In this document: positions 28,059 through 40,337 of the stretch, one piece after another | Position numbering within the stretch: position 1 is the first letter of the stretch | How the letters are laid out: every line of letters begins with the position of its first letter | NCBI GenBank assembly: GCA_029717555.1 | Contig: JAMDHS010000109.1 | Location: 1-63,551, forward strand | DNA: 63,551 nucleotides | Direction of reading: 5' to 3' | Source: Peribolospora baueri | Taxonomy: Eukaryota | Notes under the pieces: model-generated | The model's database searches: none | Seen by the model: the letters and a program-made list of their open reading frames with translations, nothing else | Told to the model about the DNA's origin: nothing | Translations under genes and position numbers: made by a program

Positions 28059-28808
28059 CGTTGGGTGAAGACAAAAGAGGCTGCTTCGCTTGCCCAGAGA
28101 GGCTGGAGTAAGGCAGCGCGGACAGAGGAGCAAATGGCCCAATGCTCCCCTTGTTACACGGTAAACCGAGGGTGACAAAGGGCAGCTGAGCGCTTGCTCT
28201 TGCCGAGCAGCTCGGTGAAGTGCGGCAGGGAGGTGGAAGTGTGATGGATGGGTGGGTGGATGGAATGAATGCGACGAGCGGCCTTGGAATTCCTCAGCGG
28301 TGGATTATCTCCGCGTATCGACGTCGATCATCCTCGTGACCTCAGACGACTGGACCGAGCGGCAAAAGATCGCGACGGACCTTTCTACACTTGCGAAGGC
28401 CTTCTCGAACAAGGACAAGCAAACCCGTCGGATTACACTCGAGGAAGACAACCTCACAGGCGTAGAAAGATGAGGTAAACTGGGCGTCGACGACGGCAAG
28501 ATGAATACGTCAAAACCGGAAGCATGAGCTAGGCTAGACGGGGTTCGTTACAGGCGTAAAAGGGAAGAAGAAAATGTGTGTACGGCCGGACTGACTACAT
28601 GCGTGGGAGGACTCATTGATGACAGGCGAGGGAAGGGAGGGAACAAATGAGACAAGACGGAGAGGGTTAGGTGGGGCTAAGCGGGCTGATGGGGGGGTGA
28701 CTAGTGAGCAGCTGCGCAACATTTAAGGAAATGAGGAAAACGGAATGGAAACGGAGAATGGAGAAACGAGAGGCAATAAGGGCAGAAACGTCTTCAGACC
28801 CCTTGATC

Positions 28809-30002
28809 CTACTCCTTCTTCTCCTCCTTGGCCTCGGACTCCTCCTCCTTCTTCTCCTCCTTGGCCTCGGACTCCTCCTCCTTCTTCTCCTCCTCCTTAG
28901 TCTCCTCCTCCTTAGTCTCCTCGGTAGCTCCGCCGGCCACCGAGGGCGCCTCGCCCTCGGCAACGGCGCCCTTGAGGCCCTCGTTAAGCTTCTGACCCGC
29001 CTCGAACTGCTCCTTGAACTGGTTGGCATCTGTAGAAGAGTGATGGGTGAACAAAGGGGATCAGACGCTTTGGCATAGAAATGGGTCGTTGCCCCTCTCC
29101 CGGGAGAGGACAAAATTGACGAGGAAGAACGGCATTCACTCTCAGAGTTGGCGAAGCGGATGGCAAGCGTCTCCGCGCTAGCCTCGCCATCAGCGACGTC
29201 GGCGGCGACGTTCCACACCCAGGAACGGTCCGAGCCAACGTTCGGGGCCAGCTTCATGTCGGGGGTGACTGTCTCGTCAGCAAGAGTCCATCCAATCAAG
29301 AAGTATGATCCGTAAGTCAGCATCCGTCCGCGACGCAACAACCAGCCTGCCCGTAGTCTGACCGCGAACCGTGCGTCAGCGATCAGGCGAGATCAGAGGC
29401 GACGCGCTACTCACGGTAATGGTTAGCGCACACCTTGAGCGTCTTGTCTCGGCGCATGACAAGGCGGACCTTCTTGGACTCCTTGTGCTGGAGCAGCCTC
29501 ACGTCGCCCGTGCCGCGCTCCTTCCATTCCTTGGATTCTTTGGCGAAGCGGAAGAGCTTGGCGCGCCTGGTGGCCAGAAAAAGGGATGGCGGAGAGGGTA
29601 TAGGTGAAGCATGAATCGAAGAAAGTAGCACGTAAGCGAGGATCAGTCGTAAGAGTCGACATCGTTTAGAGTGTTGGCTTCCACTCACATCTTGAAGAGC
29701 ACGTCCTCGTCCTCCTCGTGAGTCTTCGTCTCGACCTGGTCGAGCTTGACAAGAGGCTCAAAATTAGGGTCATTTTCAACGTTCTCCGCCTCCTCAGGCT
29801 GTGTCATAGAAAACAACAGTGGAAAGATAATGCAAAGTTAAAGGCTGATCGAGCGTAAAGATGATAAGGACGCCATCCAGCTCCGCACTAGCCCGGTGAA
29901 GCGTCCGTCGAACGAGCAGCTCCCACGGCCGATTCAAGCACCTCCATTTGCCTTTCTCACCTTGGCGGCGGCGACGGGCTCCTTGGGCTCGGTGTCGGCC
30001 AT
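28809..30002 (-). CDS. YRB1: Ran-binding protein 1 (RanBP1/Yrb1)
   Basis: [94 protein letters not shown]; acidic repeated tail ([11 protein letters not shown] x2). Confidence 0.95.
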
Positions 30003-30381
30003 TTTTGATGTGGCAAAAAGAGAAGGGTCTAGTGGTATACGGGGGCGTGAGGAAGTGAAGGAACGAAAAATGCAACAAGGGGGATATGCCCGTGGTGGGA
30101 GATAGTGAGGTCCGCCTCCACAGTCAACTCTTCCCTTTCACCCCCATTCGACCAGCAGCCGAGAAGCAAACGCAGGCGCACGCGGCTAACCCTAACTGCA
30201 GATACTGCTGCGGCCGCTGCGGCGGGCGAGTCGAGCGGTCTTCGACGGCCAGCTCAACGCACGCACGACGAGCCCCATCCCGACCGATCACGACCAGCGA
30301 GCCACTTAAGTCACGCCCACGGTGGCACCGCGGCCCTCACGACGACAACCCATTGCCCCTTTCATCCTCTCCTACTCCTTC

Positions 30382-31600
30382 ATGCTCTTCCTAGCCGTTT
30401 TCCTTGCCCTCCTCGGGCTGTCTTCGCTCGCGCGGGCGCACATGATCGAGCTCCCGCCAGCAAGCAAGGAGTGCTTCTTCGAGGACCTTCATCAGGGTGA
30501 TCAGGTGTGTTGATCTGCAGAGAGTGCTCCATCGTTCGTGCTCGGGAGAGACCGCGTTCCTCAAATTTGTTTGAGAGAGAGTCTTTGCTCAGCTGAAATG
30601 AATGAACGTGTATCGTGTTGGTGTCTCCATGGCGCAGATGACGCTCACGTATCAAGTCGGAGGAGGAGGTCATCTCGACATCGACGTCTGGGTGAGCATA
30701 TCTCTTCTTTAGACCCTTTTTTTCTTTGCATCGGCTCACAGGGACATTTTCTCTCCGGTTCCGATTCCATTTGCGCAGCTCCGCTCTCCACAAGGTTATG
30801 ACATGTTCAAGCAGTTGAAAAAGGACACGGGAACATACTCCTTCACGGCTTCCGACGATGGTCGATACACCTACTGCTTTAGCAACGACTTTAGCACGGT
30901 CAGCGATAAGACTGTTAGGTGAGTTCGACCCATCTATGATATGGCGTTGTTTGTTTGGCAATGAACTCAGAAGCTGATGCCTCCTTCCGCTTCCCCCTGT
31001 TTACTCTTATCCCTTCCATTGCGGCCATCCTGCTTTCTTACACGTAGCTTCAATGTGCACGGAATTATCTACGTGCCAGACGATGGCGAAACGCTACCGA
31101 TTGAGAAGGAGATTCGGGAGCTGGCGGCGGGCTTGCAGACGGTCAAAGATGAGCAAGAGTACTTGGTCATCAGGGAGCGGGTGCACAGGAATAGTGAGTT
31201 ACACCGTCTCCTTCAACGTATTAAAAGGCCCTCATATCGGTCCCATCCCTTCTTGGGCGTGTGGGTCAACAGTGGGCGTGCTGACTGACTGATCTATGGT
31301 TTCCTGGGATCTTGCGGTCTCTTGCTTGCTCGTGTCCACTTTAACCAGCGGCCGAGTCTACCAACGCGAGGGTAAAGTGGTGGTCCCTCATTCAGGCCAT
31401 GATCCTCATTTGCGTGTGCTCATGGCAGGTCTATTATCTCAAGCGGTGAGTGGGCCTGCCGGTCGCCCTTCAACAAGCCAACCACAGCGGCAGCTCGCTC
31501 GTGTACGAACCGTCCTTCGCACGTCTGGGTGTTGATTCATATTTCTTGGTCCGTGTCTGCTCTATTCCACAGGCATTTCGAAGTCAAGCGCATCTACTGA
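30382..31600 (+). CDS. EMP24: p24 family cargo receptor (Emp24/TMED2, GOLD domain)
   Basis: Signal peptide, KECFFEDLHQGDQ|MTLTYQVGGGGHLDIDVW, GRYTYCFSN, VKDEQEYLVIRERVHRN|AESTNARVKWWS, QVYYLKR|HFEVKRIY*. Confidence 0.93.
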
Positions 31601-32128
31601 GCTTTGGTTCTTCCTACTCGATACCACCTCGTTTACACACCGAGCTGGCTCATATGTCGTACTATTCGCACTTTAATAGAGGCTGGGCAATGGAAGTCGT
31701 CGTTGATCCGCTTCACACGAACGTATGGACGAGAAATCTAACAGCTGGAAAGAGAAAGGGCGCAAGCTTGAGGCTGGTCTCGAAAGGTCCAACGTTCGTG
31801 CGGGAGAGAGAAAGAGCACGAAGCGGGGCCGAAACGAGAGCGCTCGTGCAAGAGTACCCGACCAGAGACGTGGATTGCTGCACGCCGAGAACAATCGGCA
31901 ATCTCTGCAGGAGGGAAGGAAAAGCCTGGTTTTACAGCGTCTGTTATTAATACGAACAGGAAGGCGGCGTTCGGTTTGCGGACGTCCTCGTAGTTCTGAT
32001 GCACGTGACTGGAATGGAAATTGACCTCGATCGTATTCGCCTTCGTCTTCCTGGGCAGTTCTGGAGGAAGGAAACGTCCTTGTCTATCCATGCCCTCCGT
32101 CGCTCTCCTCGAAGACGCCACTGTCGCC

Positions 32129-33037
32129 ATGTCTGTTCATACATCCTCCCAAATTACATCCTTGGCGCCCACGGGAGCGGCAGGGCTGGCGCCACCGCCG
32201 CCGATGCTAGGCGACCTCGACGACCTCAATCACCTCGAAGAGACGTTCTACCGCACAGGTTACGACGCAGGGTTCGAGCACGGAAAGCTCCACGGGACGT
32301 TTGAGGGGAGGGAGCTTGGAAGGCAGAAGGGCTTTGACGTTTGGGAGGAGGTCGGGTACTACGAAGGCATGGCCGAATTTTGGCTCGCCATCGCAGAGAG
32401 TGGCCGGCAGAAGTGAGCCTGTGTGCCCTGTCCAGTCTCGCTCAAGGCATCTCTCTTTTTCTTTCTCTTAACGTGTCCTCCCAATGATGGATCTATTTCT
32501 CATTCGATTAGCCGAGCTTCTCAAAGACACCTCCGCCATATTGGAGCGCTCCAAACGCTCATTGCACGCTTCCCCACCGCCAATGACTCCTCCGTCCTCG
32601 ACTCTACGCCTGCTCACAAAGCTGGCGAAAACGACGAAACCATGGCGGTCGATTCGAGCGCTGTACCGAATGGAGATGTCCGAGACCACAAGGACGACGA
32701 AGACGCAATGATGGGGGATGGCGAAGGCGCAGACGGGTCGTCGGAAGGAGACAAGCAAGGCGACATTTCCACTCAGCTTGAACGCATCCGCGCTCGATAC
32801 CGTCTCCTGTGCTCCTCTCTTGGCGTGAGACCACGCTCAACCGTTCCGGAGGATGTGGGGCTGGACGGTGCACTGGCTCTTCCCGAGGATGGTAATGACA
32901 ACACCGGAAGCGGAGACCGAGTGGTAGGGCGGAGGACGGCCACGGGGAGGGGTGGGGAGGAGACGGTACAGGGCGGAAGGGATCGCAGGGTGTTGATAGG
33001 TGGCACGATGGTCGATACTCGCAAGCTCGCGTACTGA
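32129..33037 (+). CDS. LTO1: Lto1/ORAOV1 (Yae1_N deca-GX3 domain), Fe-S assembly adaptor for Rli1
   Basis: LEETFYRTGYDAGFEHGKLHGTFEGRELGRQKGFDVWEEVGYYEG (GX3 repeats); LERIRARYRLLCSSLGVRPR. Confidence 0.82.
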
Positions 33038-33376
33038 GGGCCAGCGACCAGCTCAGATGACCAAGACCAACATTCAGACCGGCGAACTTTTTTTTTGTCA
33101 CCGACTCTTGTCGTCGGCGGCGACTTCAACCTCTGGGGCGAAGCCATGATACCTATGCTTGAAGCGCTCGAGATGGCTACATTACGACCAAGACAGACTA
33201 GGAGAAGAGAGATGACCGGGAAGAATACGAACTAGGAGACGAGGCGTGACAGGCGTGGATGTGATGGCGATGCTCACGAAAGGGAGAAACGCCACAAGCC
33301 GACAGGAAGGCTGAGAGGAAGGCGGTGGGAGGCGGTCGCCGTAAGCGAAGGCCCTTGTTTTGCTTCTTTTTGCTCG

Positions 33377-33680
33377 TCATGGACGCGGCTCGGTCGAGTG
33401 GACGCTAACCGCTTTCTTCCCCCGCAGCTCGACCGCCAACGCTACCTCGTCCAAGAGCGCCTCCGTCGGTGACTTGCCTGTCCCACCCTTCTCCACCTCC
33501 GACGCCCTTGCCTGACCTCTATCCACCTCCCTTCCCCCACCGCCCAGTCTCCTCCTCCGCCACCGCCTCCTCCTCCCACAACGCCGCACCCGCCTCCAAG
33601 CTCCCCTTCTCCGCCTCCGGCCCCGTCGCCGTCCAGCTCGGGCCCTTGGTGTCGCCGCCGGCGTCGCCGTCCTCTTCTGA
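33377..33680 (+). pseudogene. Inverted 3' part of the CFEM gene: intron 3' half, Ser/Thr/Ala stalk exons and GPI-signal tail
   Basis: Branch GCTAAC and CAG acceptor at 33427; exon 33428-33468 (STANATSSKSASV); intron; exon 33548-33680 (SSSATASSSHNAAPASKLPFSASGPVAVQLG, then after a 1-nt shift ALGVAAGVAVLF*). Splice phase matches exon 2. Confidence 0.8.
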
Positions 33681-33686
33681 TCTCAC

Positions 33687-34050
33687 CCGGTGACGTTGGA
33701 GCACCCCTGCTGCAGGAGGGCGAGACCGGCCTGCTGGTTGGCGGCGGAGCAGCTTGCCTGGAGGCAGGTGCTAATGGAGGTCACGGCCATGTTGGTGCAG
33801 ATGCAGGTGAGGTTGGCTGTATGGGAGAGTTGGCGGTGAGCGTGAGTGGTCGTGTGGGTCTCCGTCTATCCATCCATTCGTCCATCGCACACCGCGTCGT
33901 CGCGCCGCCGGCGCCGCTGGGCTACTCACTGACGGACGTGCAACTGAGGAGGGCTTGGTTGGTGCAGCTGAGCACGCACGGGGGCACGTTCTGGGCGAGG
34001 ACGCCGGAGAGGGTGGCGAGGAGGGAGAGGAGGGGGAGGGAGACGAGCAT
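33687..34050 (-). pseudogene. CFEM-domain GPI cell-surface protein, exons 1-2 (signal peptide + CFEM); 3' exons lie on the opposite strand
   Basis: Exon 1 34050-33930 and exon 2 33816-33687 encode MLVSLPLLSLLATLSGVLAQNVPPCVLSCTNQALLSCTSVTNLTCICTNMAVTSISTCLQASCSAANQQAGLALLQQGCSNVTG (8 Cys, CFEM spacing); donor GTGAGA at 33686-33681. Confidence 0.85.
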
Positions 34051-34130
34051 GATGGGCGGCGAGTGTGGGGCGACTAGGTGGGAGTGGTGGGAGGAGAAGA
34101 GGCGAAGGGAAGGGAAGGCGCTGGCGTGGC

Positions 34131-34136
34131 TTTATA
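34131..34136 (-). promoter_or_regulatory. TATA box of the CFEM gene
   Basis: TATAAA on the minus strand ~80 nt upstream of the ATG at 34050. Confidence 0.55.
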
Positions 34137-34374
34137 CGTATCCCCGGCGAGCCGTGCGTGCCTCAAGCGCAAGCCAGTCCAGTCGTCTTTCTTGTTTTCC
34201 TTCTTTTCTTGTCTCTCTCCCTCCTCGCCTTCTTCCTTCCCCCTGCCAGCCTCACCCGCGCCACCCCTGTTTCTGGCCCAGACGAGACAATCAAGGCAGG
34301 AGGAGGAGGAGGTCGACGGCGGAAGGATACCATCCATGAGCCCTTCGCCCGTCTTTTGTTGGTATTGGCGAGAG

Positions 34375-35674
34375 GTAAGAGCCCCCGACTTCGAGATCAC
34401 CCTGAAGCAGAAGGACCCCAAGAACCCCGTTCTCACCCATGAGAGCCCCTCGGAGCTAAAACGACTCGTCGAGGGCGCCCTTAAGACACACCACACCCTA
34501 CCCCCTTCCTCCACTGACGCCAAAGTCCGCGCCGTCAGTCGACACGCTTCTAAGGACATCCTGATCATCTTTGAATCCGCTGAGTCTGTTTCCTTTTTGA
34601 GGGAGCGCAACGGCTGGGTGGCAAAGCTGGACGGGGGTCTCCTTATCACACGTCCGACCTTCCCGATCATGATACACGCGGTCCCCCTCAGCTTTGACCC
34701 GGAGAAGGATTTGGGAGAGCTCGCGGACTCCAATGCACCCATCTTCAGGGTTGATGAGGCTAGCACAATAGAGCGCGCTGTCTGGGCCAAAAAGAACTCC
34801 CTCAATGACCCCACGAAGTCCCGCTCCTCTCTCATTGTCTACCTCTCATCTCCCGACACCGCTAACCGCGCTATCGACCGCGGCGTCGTCTACCAGAACC
34901 ATCTCCTGCGGTGTGAGAAGGCTCTCCGTCCCCCCCGCCAATGCTACAACTGCCAGCGCATGGGGCATACGTCTGACCGGTGCACGGCACCGCCTACATG
35001 CTCTCGGTGTGCTGGGTCCCACGAGACCAAGAAGTGCCCTTGCCCTAATGACCCCCCCTGCACCACACCCCGGGAGTGCACCCACTACTCACAGAGATGC
35101 GCTCTCTGCAAGTCAGTGGAGCACGACAGCTCTCACGATGACTGCCCCTTCAAAATCCGAGCCAAGACGCACCAGACTCTACTGAAGGGCCCCGGCGACC
35201 TCTACCTGGTCCCCCCCTCTCGCCGTTCTGAATGAACAGGTCGCTCCATCTCCCTTCGCTGCGCTCACCCACCCCCTCTCCGATTCCCTCCCCACAACCT
35301 ACTTCTCCCTCCCCCGCCACCACAGGGCCCCCACCCCCACTCCCTCCCCCTCCTCGCCGAACATCTACATCTCCTGCAATACAACCTCCACCACGACCGG
35401 GCATCCACCCACTCCCTACTCAATTCGTCATTCTCCGAACTGCTCGACCTCTTACTCGTCACCGAACCGTACCTACTCCCCAACTCATCCACCTCGCCAC
35501 CCTCCCACCCCTGTTGGCGCCCCTTCCTCCCCACTCCCCCTCCTCGCACACCACCCAACGCACGCGTTCGATCGGTAATCTTCGCCTCCCATAATCTCTC
35601 ACCCAACCAGGTCACCCCCCTCCCTACCCACTCCCTCGACATCTCTGCAATCCGCCTCTCCATCCCTGACTTGC
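34375..35674 (+). mobile_element. Non-LTR (LINE, Tad1-like) retrotransposon fragment: 5'-truncated ORF1 gag-like plus start of ORF2 APE endonuclease, cut by an LTR
   Basis: ORF1 to 35235 with zinc knuckles CYNCQRMGHTSDRC, CSRCAGSHETKKC, CALCKSVEHDSSHDDC; from ~35359 a frame reading HLLQYNLHHDRASTHSLLN..DLLLVTEPY...RSVIF...DISAIRL (APE motifs), ending at the LTR edge. Confidence 0.85.
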
Positions 35675-35945
35675 TGAAAGGTCTCAGGGACCTCGGTGCA
35701 CACACACGCAGACAACAGACTAGCGACCAATCTGTGGGCTGTCTGAAGGATGCGAATAGGTGTGACTTGAGGGGAGGAGAGCAAGAGTGGGCAAAGCGTT
35801 GCCAGCTCATCGCTCTCTGCGCGCGCAAGTCTGCGCACGCACCCCTCGTCACACGACCGCCCGCTCGCATAAGGCGAGCGGCAAACTACGTACATGTCCC
35901 CGGTGTCTCGCCCAAGTCCCCTCTCACTGACCCCGGATCCTAACA
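35675..35945 (-). mobile_element. 3' LTR (~271 bp) of a Ty3/Gypsy chromovirus
   Basis: Minus strand TGTTAGG...CCTTTCA with imperfect inverted ends; immediately preceded by the polypurine tract AGAGGGGGAGGG (35957-35946); interrupts LINE ORF2. Confidence 0.75.
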
Positions 35946-36093
35946 CCCTCCCCCTCTAGGCCGGCTGCCGGCCGACCTAAGAACTCATAGCCTCGTCCGT
36001 GGGCGCAACGAGGACCTCCGAAAGGGGAGGGAAAATTTGCCTCGGCCCAGAAGGGTCGGCCGAGGGGAACCCGGGATTAGTGACGGGAGAAGG

Positions 36094-36300
36094 TCAGTGA
36101 CCCTCTTTGCGCCGAGGCAGTTGCTTCGGCGTGGCAACACCCATAAGCTCCAGATAGCGATCCAGAGCCTCAGTGTCGTCTACTCCCGAGAGTGGCTCGG
36201 GTGTAACACCTCCTACAGTCCATTGGACGAAGAGGAACAACGAGTTGCCGCGCCACTCATGGCCGACAATCTTGTCGATGAACCATTCCTGGTCCGACAT
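36094..36300 (-). mobile_element. Chromodomain at the C-terminus of the Gypsy integrase
   Basis: MSDQEWFIDKIVGHEWRGNSLFLFVQWTVGGVTPEPLSGVDDTEALDRYLELMGV, upstream of the PPT and LTR on the same strand. Confidence 0.85.
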
Positions 36301-37300
36301 TTTCACGAGATCCTGGGTCATCTTGGATTCAGGAAAACATTGGCAGCTATCTGCACTCAAGTGTGCTGGCCGTTAATTTACGCAGATGTCTCTGCGTTCT
36401 GCAAGTCATGCGCGACTTGTGCGATGATTAAATCATCGACTCAAGCCCCGCTTGGGCTTGCTCATCCTCTCCCGGTACCGAGGGTACCTTGGGAGGTCAT
36501 TGCCATGGACTTTGTGGGACCCTTCCCACCGTCACATGGATTCGATTACCTCTGGGTGATCGTCGACAAGCTGACCAGCATGGTCCGGCTTGTTCCAACT
36601 ACCACCCGGGTCACAGCGAAGGAGCTTGCTAAGCTCTTCCTGGACCAGGTGTGGAAGTTTCACGGACTTCCGAACGCGATCATCAGTGACCGCGACTCGA
36701 AGTTCGTCTCCAGGTTCTGGAGAGAGCTCCGTCGACTCTTGGGCACGCAGCTGCTCATGTCGACGGCCTACCATCCCCAGACGGATGGCTCCTCGGAACG
36801 GGCGATTCGCACCGTTTCGAGTATCCTCCGAGCGTTCGTGAGCTCGGATCAGACCGACTGGTCTGACAAGCTCCCGCAAGTGGAGTTTGCCATCAATTCG
36901 ACGGTCTCTGCAACCACTGGTTGCACGCCGTTTGAATTGAACTACGGGTACACCCCATCTTCCCTCCGCCTCGTCGCGACGGAGGTCTCGTTCCCTGGTG
37001 TCCGCAAGTTTGCGGAACAGGCCAGGCTAAACTTGATGAGAGCGCATGACGCTATCATCGAGTCTCGAACGCGCTCTACAGCGCGTACTAACTCCTCTCG
37101 ACGGGAGGAGAAGACTCCGTTCAAGGAGGGAGACCTAGTCTACCTCTCGACGGAGAACCTGGCCCTGCCGAAAGGGAGAGCCAGGAAACTTTCTCCCAAG
37201 TTCATTGGGCCCTTCCGGATCACGGAAGCACGACCGGAGTCGTCCAACTACACGTTGGCACTGCCTCCGGACTTGGGGAGGATTCACCCCAAGTTTCACT
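36301..37300 (+). mobile_element. Ty3/Gypsy integrase H2C2 + catalytic core + SH3-like region, inverted relative to the rest of the element
   Basis: HEILGHLG...CKSCATC; MDFVGP (D), ISDRDSKF (D), HPQTDGSSER (E); KLSPKFIGPFRI; IHPKFHS; open frame throughout. Confidence 0.92.
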
Positions 37301-37388
37301 CATCTGTGCGAAGTCGTAAGCCTTGCGCGAGTCCCGCGCAGGGAATTTCTCATCATCGTTCGGCACGTAGGGCCGAAGCAACGCCGAG
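37301..37388 (-). mobile_element. Integrase-to-chromodomain linker fragment
   Basis: Minus strand reads SALLRPYVPNDDEKFPARDSRKAYDFAQM, the segment expected between ...FHS and SDQEWF. Confidence 0.8.
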
Positions 37389-38019
37389 GGATTCATTTTT
37401 GCTGTTCTTCAAACGCCCTTATTATAAAATGTTTTATGTTGTATTGGAACGATTAACTGCCGCCCATACTGCTCAAGGACGCCTTACCTACAGGGACTGC
37501 CCAGTGAGCAGTGGCTCCTCGTCGGTTGTGGCTGCGCCAGAGAGACGGCTTGCAAACGACCGGACTCACAATCAAAAGGACACCGGCAAGTCATGTAGTT
37601 CAAAACTGCTTCACGCGGGGGAAGACTGTCCGTACCCCAGCCCTTCTCGAAATGGTGATAGGTACACCGCTGCGCGAGTACCATCGTACTCCCAGTGCCG
37701 CTGACCTGAAGCCATCTCAAGACGCCCATCGTCGTGCACGCCGGGACAGGAGGCGGGCGTTAGGCCTCTCTATCAAACGCACATAGATTTATAAATAATA
37801 CATCAACTATACTAAGTGTATTATTTGGCCATTGGCCGCAGTCAGAAGAGATAAATAGGGTTAGGGTCAGACACGGCGATTCTGTACAAGACCTTCACAG
37901 GACGACTGCGGAAGTGCTTCCGACTCGCCAGATCTTCCACGGACCCTCTCATTGTCGCTCAAGGCAGCGCGCAAGGCACCAATCCATCAAGGCAACTTCT
38001 CAAGCCAACCCAAAAGAAA

Positions 38020-39389
38020 ATGTGGGTTCTTGATTATGTTGGGCGGATTCGCCAGAGTGTGGTGATTTGGTTGATCTGACGGACGGTACTATCGCCGCTC
38101 CACTCGGCTTTGCGTTCGCTCTCGCTCAGGTCTGAGGCTCCTCGTGGTCGCGGTGGTTTCGGTAGGGGCAGGGGTGGCAGGGGCGGCCGAAGGGGCCCCC
38201 GCCGCGGCGGTCGCAGGGATGAGGAGAAGGAGTGGGTTCCCGTGACGAAGCTCGGCAGGCTGGTCAAGTGAGTGTAGTCGTCAGATGGCATGCCCAAGTC
38301 GCGATGGATGGACGAGGAGGGCTGAGCAACGGCTAGAGGCTGAACGAAGTCGTCTCTCTGGTAAACAACGACGCGCTCACGCTACAGGGACGGCAAGATC
38401 AAGTCTATTGAGGAGATCTACCTCTTCTCCATGCCCGTCAAGGAGTACCAGATCATCGACTTCCTCCTGCCCAAGCTCAAGGACGAGGTTATGAAGATCA
38501 TGCCCGTCCAGAAGCAGACCCGCGCCGGTCAGCGCACCCGCTTCAAGGCCTTCGTCGCCATCGGTGACTTCAACGGTCACCTTGGCTTCGGCGTCAAGTG
38601 CGCCAAGGAGGTCGCTACTGCCATCCGCGGCGCCATCGTTCTCGCCAAGCTCTCCATCATCCCCGTTCGTCGCGGTTACTGGGGTAACGCTCTCGGTGAA
38701 CCGCACACCATCCCCATGAAGGTGTCCGGCAAGACCGCCTCCGTCATGTGCCGTCTCATCCCCGCTCCCCGTGGTACTGGCCTCGTTGCCGCTCCCGCGT
38801 CCAAGCGCATGCTTCAGCTTGCCGGTGTTCAGGACTGCTACACCCAGTCTGCTGGTCAAACGTGAGTCTTGTTCAGCTGAGCGTCAGCTGCTGTTGGGCT
38901 TTGAAGGATTTCATTCCTGACGGCCCTTTCTTCCTTCAATTCAAATTTTCGGGTGCCGACAGCGCGACTATGGGCAACTTCGTGAGCAGTCTTGTGATTT
39001 ATGGCATCCGCGATACAGAGCTGACTTTTTCGTCTTTACGAATATTTTCCCGCTGGAACGACGTCTTGCGATCTACAGTTGAAAGGTGAGCATGCTGTCG
39101 CTGTCTTCGTTAGCATGATCAATCCTCGATCGGCTGTACTGACTGTTATCCCTTTTTGCTCCTCGTCGCAATAATAGCCACCTTCGAGGCAGTGTCCAAG
39201 ACGTACGCCTTCCTGACTCCCAACCTCTGGCGCGAGATCGCTCCTCCTCCGGTGAGTGCTAGAAGTCGTGTTGTTCTAGGCGTTTCCTATGTGCTCATGA
39301 CATCCGTGCATCCCTCATGATCCCTGCAGGCGCCCTACGACGAGTTTTCGACCCATCTTGCTCAGGCGGGCAAGAAGGCCGTCTACTGA
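38020..39389 (+). CDS. RPS2: 40S ribosomal protein S2 (uS5), multi-exon
   Basis: RGG-rich N-terminus, [101 protein letters not shown]. Confidence 0.97.
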
Positions 39390-39497
39390 GCTGCTCTCGG
39401 TTCCATATAGGCTTCCTCTCGTCATGTCACACTAGCCATTTTCTAAATGCATTCGCTTCAGATCCCATCCGATCGGATCCGTTCGTCTCGCATCCTC

Positions 39498-40337
39498 TCA
39501 AGGCCAGCCTACAAGCTTGAGCCAGGCCCCCAACTTGTCCACGCACTGATCCTCTTCCTCATTAATCAGGAAATGTCCCGTCTCGTCGTCCGATGGCGTG
39601 ACTCTGGAACGCCTTGGGATCTCTCACGAAGTCCGCCCACACGCGGTCGACGTCGAAGCGGCGCCGGAGGTGGGCGGAAGAGAGGATAAGCGTGGGGCAC
39701 ACGATGGGTGGCTCGGCGGGGCGGAGGTGAGGAGCGATTGAGGAGGACAGGTCATCGTGCAAGTCGACCGTGGCGCCAGCCCGATACTGGAAACGATCAT
39801 GGGTAGAGTAAGGCGTGTCTGAAAGAAAATGGCGAAGCGCTTTATGCGCAGAAAGAGAGCAGGACCAGCGCTCACGTCTTCACATGCGCCTTGAATGCAC
39901 TAGGGCGCATCGATATAAGGTCGCGAGGCGTCTTGGATGGCCTGTTCGAAGTCGACCTTGCGCTCCATCTTCCACCTCGCCCCAGCCCACGACTGGATGG
40001 TGAAAAGCAATGTGCCCTCTCAGGCTTGCCTTGAATGAGCATTTCGGCTGCTGGGCTGGCGAGGAAAATCCAGTGGTAGCTCTTCATCATCTCGCCCCAT
40101 CACCCCCCTCCCATCGAGCCTGTCGCCCGGACCGCTCTCCTTGGCGACGCCGTCCATGGCCGCCCAGACGTAGCTGCCCGGCACAATGTCTAGGAACACC
40201 ACGCCAGCGACGCGCTCGGGGAAGGCGACAGCGAGGTTATAGGCCAAGCGACCGCCGCGATCGTGTCCCAGCGCGATGAACGGGAGCCGAGGCCGAGGGC
40301 AGAGATGAGGTCGACAACGTCCTTTGCCACCGCGCGC
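39498..40337 (-). pseudogene. Alpha/beta hydrolase of haloacetate dehalogenase type, 5'-truncated and disrupted
   Basis: RAVAKDVVDLISALG, GHDRGGRLAY (Asp nucleophile), LDIVP, YHWIFLA, ACED|YRAGATVDL, ETGHFLINE; frameshifts and an in-frame TAG at 39902-39900; no N-terminal third. Confidence 0.8.

Follow-up and report, generated by a model that had tools for sequence, protein, structure and literature searches.

Haem-binding CFEM hemophores of the Rbt5/Pga7/Csa2 type use a conserved Asp as haem ligand; Csa2 is the name given to the soluble hemophore type. Bacterial invertons and the mating-type flip-flop of yeast have flanking inverted repeats, which are of kilobase size in yeast, and both orientations occur in the population. 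In Drosophila mod(mdg4), exons on opposite strands are trans-spliced. According to the available text of PMC4183699, the GPI-anchored CFEM proteins include Candida albicans Rbt5. Soluble secreted CFEM proteins and small CFEM effector candidates are described in the accessible portions of two other reports (bioRxiv 10.64898/2026.05.08.723727, PMC13030711). Small gene-breaking inversions and duplication-inversions arise, as far as the available parts of the sources tell, by end joining or template switching (PMC9199198, PMC9701231).

The window analyzed here is the whole stretch of 63,551 nucleotides of Peribolospora baueri (contig JAMDHS010000109.1). The first-pass annotation had proposed that it contains a CFEM gene split over both strands, and we found all sequence elements of that gene at the claimed places. 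Exons 1 and 2, with a putative signal peptide, an eight-cysteine CFEM domain and the donor GTGAGA, are indeed on the minus strand; the branch point, acceptor, stalk exons and GPI-like tail are on the plus strand, as confirmed by motif scan and codon bias. The CFEM gene is duplicated, and the copy at this locus has probably undergone a non-homologous rearrangement that became fixed; it would yield at most an anchorless secreted product.

The 5′ half of the gene is on the minus strand. Exon 1 (34050–33930) contains the start codon, a hydrophobic, putative export signal and the first three CFEM cysteines, and it ends in phase 1. Its translation is MLVSLPLLSLLATLSGVLAQNVPPCVLSCTNQALLSCTSV, starting with MLVSL and ending with CTSV; by eye, MLVSLPLLSLLATLSGVLAQ at its N-terminus is signal-peptide-like and thus a putative secretion signal. 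Intron 1 (33929–33817) begins with GTGAGT and ends with ACAG, joining exon 1 to exon 2 in frame. Exon 2 (33816–33687) supplies the other half of the CFEM domain, including five cysteines, and ends in phase 2; its translation is (T)NLTCICTNMAVTSISTCLQASCSAANQQAGLALLQQGCSNVTG (NLTCIC … NVTG). With three cysteines from exon 1 and five from exon 2, the domain has eight in total, in CFEM spacing. The Pfam CFEM profile (PF05730) was matched by exon 2 at profile positions 25–66 of 66 with an E value of 1.6e-4; the score is 22.1 bits when exon 2 is taken as part of a 60-residue ORF (cut-off 22) and 20.1 bits for exon 2 alone, and exon 1 alone did not match the CFEM profile of Pfam. A language-model look-up pointed to an Atlas CFEM cluster with a score of 0.81, which is under the 0.9 line of the tool and serves as a lead only. 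Judged by its cysteines and the profile match, the protein of this locus is a CFEM family member.

Directly after exon 2 lies an orphan splice donor, GTGAGA (33686–33681, minus strand). Over the 686 bases past this donor on the minus strand, a search for a CTRAY branch point followed by a YAG acceptor gave no candidates. One in-frame TGA (33685–33683) overlaps the old donor, so that the read-through product would end with NVTG. The open frame of the 5′ half is 84 codons in length, and it includes the complete CFEM domain, which in the predicted mature protein would have 64 residues. Upstream of exon 1, the 5′ UTR and a short promoter region occupy 34320–34051 on the minus strand; the likeness to a second copy of the gene, described below, stops at 34319, and the promoter region of the CFEM gene is reduced to about 270 bases by a retroelement.

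The 3′ half is on the plus strand. When 33300–33700 was scanned on this strand for CTRAY-then-YAG, exactly two candidates were obtained, for which the first exon bases are 33428 and 33548. The 3′ part of intron 2 (33377–33427) contains the branch point GCTAAC (33404–33409), a pyrimidine tract and the acceptor CAG (33425–33427). It is preceded by a possible extra segment of 27 bases (33350–33376), either more of intron 2 or the old 3′ flank, which begins where a contig node starts in the reads. Exon 3 (33428–33468) encodes the stalk sequence STANATSSKSASV, and its phase suits the GG left by exon 2. Intron 3 (33469–33547) contains GTGACT, CTGAC and CAG in that order. Exon 4 (33548–33680) begins with SSSATASSSHNAAPASKLPFSASGPVAVQLG; it encodes a Ser/Ala-rich stalk, and carries a frame break near 33640, a hydrophobic tail and the stop TGA (33678–33680). 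The tail, ALGVAAGVAVLF, makes up the last 13 codons before the stop and is readable in the +1 frame of exon 4 only. Summed over the four exons, 121 + 130 + 41 + 133 bases give 425, and the frame is off by one modulo three. Members of the GPI-anchored CFEM subgroup have the hydrophobic tail in frame on one transcript; here the strand opposite to the domain encodes the tail, which is readable in the +1 frame. The 3′ half has neither a promoter nor a start of its own.

To compare the two halves we calculated the share of codons ending in G or C, and then the share ending in C. The values are 0.95 and 0.80 for exon 1 and 0.93 and 0.71 for exon 2, both on the minus strand. On the plus strand, in the frame predicted from the splice phase, they are 0.92 and 0.69 for exon 3 and 0.97 and 0.90 for the first part of exon 4; in the +1 frame, the tail of exon 4 gives 0.77 and 0.77. 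The GC skew changes its sign at about 33680. Given the anatomy, the splice phase and the matching codon bias on opposite strands, the head-on split gene is real, far beyond chance. As the first-pass annotation had put forward, flipping the block back gives an intron of 57 bases with matching phase; with the edge at 33350, the intron would have 82 bases.

The left neighbor of the split gene is a convergent gene with a Yae1_N domain (32009–33037, plus strand; PF09811, E 9.9e-12), called LTO1 in the earlier reading; its open frame ends at 33037, 340 bases from the block. On the other side, the locus is bounded by a retroelement remnant (34321–37704, plus strand) with gag zinc knuckle, integrase zinc-binding, core and SH3 domains. 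A gag-like CCHC knuckle is encoded in the ORF 34078–35235, and the integrase zinc-binding, core and Tf2-type SH3 domains in the ORF 35944–37704; no reverse-transcriptase ORF was seen between the two. Farther away, 28667–29392 has long Arg-rich and Leu-rich low-complexity open frames on both strands and is probably a simple-sequence tract, not a gene, while 38365–38865 (plus strand) is an exon for ribosomal protein uS5 with the N- and C-terminal domains of Ribosomal_S5, a housekeeping neighbor.

The arrangement was compared with four public runs from one study, taken as Logan contigs; X1 and X3 represent organism A, X2 and X4 represent organism B. One 165-letter contig, present in both X1 and X3, is identical to 33653–33817 and spans the head-on junction. 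The 31-letter words over the junction of block and exon 2 have a depth of 103 in X1 and 77 in X3, like their neighbors. Another contig of X1 and X3, 333/334 letters in length, covers 33350–33682, and the left-flank contig (4515 letters, X1 and X3) ends at 33379; the read contigs thus break at 33350–33379 and 33653–33682. At neither junction does any contig extend 31 letters or more to both sides: the contigs reach 30 letters into the block at the right junction and 27 letters into the flank at the left one. The 30-letter word at the end of the block is also present at a second locus. Owing to this shared word and the breaks at branch nodes, the placement of the whole block beside exon 2 rests on the assembly of the window, not on the contigs alone.

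X1 shows no difference from the window, of which it may be the source. In X3, five substitutions and one indel set the sequence apart; all six are inside the block, and none lies in the other 1117 compared bases; the chance of finding all six in 333 of the 1450 compared bases is estimated at about 1.5e-4. Three of the six correspond to the states of a diverged version found in organism B, and the block differences of X3 may reflect gene conversion with the second copy. In organism B, none of the contigs listed for X2 and X4 crosses 33682/33684; for X4, the listed contigs in the bin 33664–33717 account for about 83 of a depth of 351, unlisted contigs being present there. Across all four runs, no strand-changing joint or contig with the other orientation was observed among contigs, which drop rare variants. 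The depth of the block is 137.5 and 100.5, against 84–116 and 77–98 for the neighboring contigs, namely 1.15–1.3 times the neighbors; graph flow suggests a twofold value, and depth is thus an inconsistent copy counter here.

All four runs contain a contig that starts with 33653–33682 and then continues into sequence absent from the window (2116/2117 letters). Organism A also has a 171-letter contig of a diverged exon 2, with 10 listed substitutions and an in-frame 3-letter insertion. The 10 substitutions are at codon position 1 or 2, all of them change the amino acid, and none affects a cysteine codon, so that the window copy and the second copy differ at nine residues of exon 2; the divergence of exon 2 between the two CFEM copies shows a diversifying pattern in which the cysteine codons are kept. 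One further contig of organism A (9596 letters in X1, 2925 in X3) shares 34197–34299 with six differences, leaves at 34319, and consists beyond that point of sequence absent from the window. Inside the window, blastn found no second copy, and both alternative flanking 30-mers are absent. The gene is therefore duplicated, with at least two copies, and the second, diverged copy is located elsewhere with its own flanks. We also considered that the second copy might be an un-inverted allele. This was rejected, since such an allele would continue with the reverse complement of 33376 downward, and the second copy does not.

Two versions of the block coexist in organism B. Their intron 3 sequences differ by eight substitutions and two indels, and their exon 4 sequences by two substitutions and one 7-letter indel. 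Among the non-coding differences between block versions, 11 of 12 are in intron 3, and the twelfth (33395) is in the intron 2 part. That the differences fall mainly in intron 3 is what coding constraint on the evolving sequence would produce. The original function is probably carried by the second copy. From 34321 on, the contigs of organism B show another context, with loose ends at 34321 in X2 and X4, which indicated that the retroelement sequence belongs to a repeat family. In the intergenic stretch to the left of the block (32964–33350), organism B has a second context starting from 32964, a raised depth and several indels, among them 9-letter insertions and a deletion of two letters; organism B may have a larger duplicated region than organism A.

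The protein collections searched did not yield any ortholog with the ancestral layout. Exon 2 gave two candidates, neither significant, against a word-indexed collection of longer proteins, and one marginal match (P0005, E 5.9e-4), a repeated open frame with half-CFEM-like motifs, against 1.84 billion representatives. When ORFs of relatives were sought with the 288-residue antisense ORF that runs across the junction, none of 8000 scored candidates passed, and the search of solved structures gave no match.

The first-pass annotation had taken a TCA/TGA microhomology as the boundary of the inverted block. The two triplets are present; however, three bases are at chance level, and they do not fix the left edge. 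In view of the contig breaks, the turned segment may span 33350–33682 rather than 33377–33680. A left edge at 33377 fits the end of the flank contig at 33379 equally well, and introns of 57 and 82 bases are both normal. Of the 110 inverted pairs in 32900–34400, the 25 longest are low-complexity matches elsewhere and do not bracket the block; only the three bases do. Likewise, the proposed frame break near 33640 is present, but it is not the loss of a single base. One of the block versions in X2 (depth 45 of 117) is seven letters longer behind 33641, which places the hydrophobic tail in frame, and the lesion of the window is therefore best called a 7-letter indel. X1, X3, X4 and one of the two X2 versions have an out-of-frame tail; X4 also has an in-frame 9-letter deletion at 33596.

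Taken together, we favor a fixed non-homologous rearrangement in one copy of the duplicated gene. The ancestral gene would have had about 143 codons in four exons, encoding an export signal, the eight-cysteine CFEM domain, a Ser/Thr/Ala stalk and a GPI-type tail. A non-homologous break-and-join or a template switch would then have turned its last ∼0.3 kb, comprising the rest of intron 2, exons 3 and 4 and the stop, possibly in the same event that created the window copy. The second copy resembles the block up to 33682, and its resemblance to exon 2 stops at the same base. This coincidence of the end of the duplication with the inversion junction suggests that the flip was made together with the duplication, not later in place. 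Such an event would have copied a segment of about 970 bases (from 34319 to two bases beyond the stop codon) and attached its final 333 bases in reverse, either by end joining of two fragments or by template switch; the retroelement remnant starting at 34321 adjoins this segment. Left with no partner in cis for the intron 2 donor, the transcript from the CFEM promoter would read through into the TGA. The product would be at most an 84-residue precursor with a complete CFEM domain, secreted and anchorless, and the turned 3′ half, with no promoter, no start and a broken frame, would be a relic. The window locus would thus encode a small anchorless secreted CFEM protein, or be silent. We infer the mechanism of the break, the expression of the truncated product and the parent copy. 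A one-off inversion followed by pseudogenisation had been ranked first in the earlier reading; the one-off event is the best-supported part of that proposal, and pseudogenisation is not borne out for the 5′ half, in which the frame is open through the CFEM domain.

Among the rival explanations, it is unlikely that the assembly took a wrong path through a repeat. In this case the 333-base block would occur identically at two loci and the window would join the wrong partners. The true routes would be flank, block and other flank at this place, and the exons 1 and 2 of the second copy, the block and the reversed exons 2 and 1 of the window copy at the other; downstream of an intact collinear gene there would be an inverted, partial copy of that gene's 5′ half, and the head-on junction would still be real. 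The block contig of X1 and X3 is bounded by branch nodes on both sides, and its right end continues into two contigs. Past 33682, the diverged exon-2 contig has 32 letters that do not align; these could be two letters plus the node 33350–33379, in which case a single graph accommodates all eight listed contigs and two path pairs are equally allowed. However, the depth of the block is only 1.15–1.3 times that of its single-copy neighbors, not twice, and no joint was reported for the 171-letter contig. The assembler chose the path from flank through block to exon 2, presumably on read-pair or long-read support, and it would be equally odd to have a 3′ half by itself between the Yae1_N-domain gene and foreign sequence.

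Taken strictly, the first-ranked option of the earlier reading is a simple in-place inversion of 33377–33680 through the 3-base microhomology in an old resident gene, followed by decay and with no link to the duplication; this is improbable. It would account for the 57-base intron with matching phase, and 33379, where the flank contig stops, is the final base of TCA. On the other hand, the likeness to the second copy ends at 33682, right at the junction, and it would be a coincidence for two independent events to end within two bases. Inverted identity over three bases is no more than chance would give, and the block contig starts at 33350, not at 33377.

An amplification or assembly chimera with no genomic counterpart, also raised in the first-pass annotation, is very unlikely. 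Head-on junctions are typical of some amplification artefacts, and all runs come from one study. Nevertheless, X3, set apart from X1 by its differences inside the block, represents an independent strain in which the junction recurs, and in both strains the junction words have the full, neighbor-like depth.

We regard as highly improbable a programmed or reversible flip that toggles between an anchored and a secreted protein. Its off-state is predicted to still give a complete secreted CFEM domain, and CFEM families have both soluble and anchored members, as the available text of one report indicates (bioRxiv 10.64898/2026.05.08.723727). Yet no flanking inverted repeats longer than three bases are present, and the other orientation is absent from the contigs and joints of all four runs, so that the ON/OFF switch of the earlier reading is unsupported. 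In most block versions, the out-of-frame tail would leave even the on-state with no anchor. Among the 26 ORFs of at least 120 residues in 29000–40000, no site-specific recombinase was seen; six of them were scanned with Pfam, and the sole integrase is that of the retroelement. Hardly credible, finally, is trans-splicing that would join the CFEM pre-mRNA to a convergent read-through transcript of the Yae1_N-domain gene: both strands keep their splice signals intact and that gene points into the block, but a recent event would in any case leave the signals intact, the out-of-frame tail would leave the product with no anchor signal, and we know of no precedent for trans-splicing of this kind in filamentous fungi. 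That the head-on layout is put to use at all, by trans-splicing or by a rare toggle between secreted and wall-tethered forms, or in a milder version that it is kept as an anchorless secreted protein, has a very slim chance of being right.

With the fixed rearrangement as the preferred reading, one small event would have removed the anchor and kept a complete secreted domain; soluble CFEM proteins could plausibly arise from anchored ones in this way. The locus also illustrates that half-genes lying head-on in a fungal assembly need not be artefacts. Otherwise it is an ordinary gene-breaking mutation, and it would be a new mechanism only if RNA or long reads show joining or flipping. We found no published case of such an inversion in a CFEM gene in the available text of the CFEM/GPI-inversion and fungal intragenic-inversion literature.

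Like the Rbt5-type proteins, as far as their layout is given in the available text, the inferred ancestral protein had an export signal, one eight-cysteine CFEM domain, a Ser/Thr/Ala-rich stalk and a hydrophobic tail. Different from them, the window locus has the stalk and tail on the other strand and out of frame. In contrast to the CFEM hemophores with their Asp ligand, exons 1 and 2 encode no Asp at all, for which reason a haem-relay or hemophore role of the domain is unlikely. The only product predicted in cis, one export signal followed by a bare CFEM domain, has the same layout as the soluble CFEM proteins in the accessible portions of the reports on them. Since CFEM families include both soluble and anchored members, the truncated product could by analogy be functional. 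However, the soluble proteins are intact with their own 3′ ends, whereas the product predicted here ends at an accidental TGA in a former donor.

The window locus shares with the inversion switches one coding segment that is backwards to the rest of the gene, but it has no flanking inverted repeats and shows one orientation in the contigs. It is like mod(mdg4) in having its 5′ and 3′ exons on opposite strands with intact splice signals; unlike mod(mdg4), it has a frame-broken 3′ part, its arrangement is explained by rearrangement, and it is known from DNA alone. The rearrangement fits the known class of small one-off, non-homologous inversions and duplication-inversions. As in that class, two breakpoints lie a few hundred bases apart, with 1–3 bases of homology, no long repeats and a fixed orientation, and the outer breakpoint is the end of the duplicated segment. 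Such events are marked by 0–3 bases of homology at the breakpoints, a fixed orientation and a junction that recurs in related strains; in agreement with this, the locus has the three bases TCA/TGA, one orientation in the contigs and its junction in both X1 and X3. Nothing essential differs from this class. What is unusual is the position of the breakpoints, just past the splice donor and just past the stop codon, owing to which every splice signal survives.
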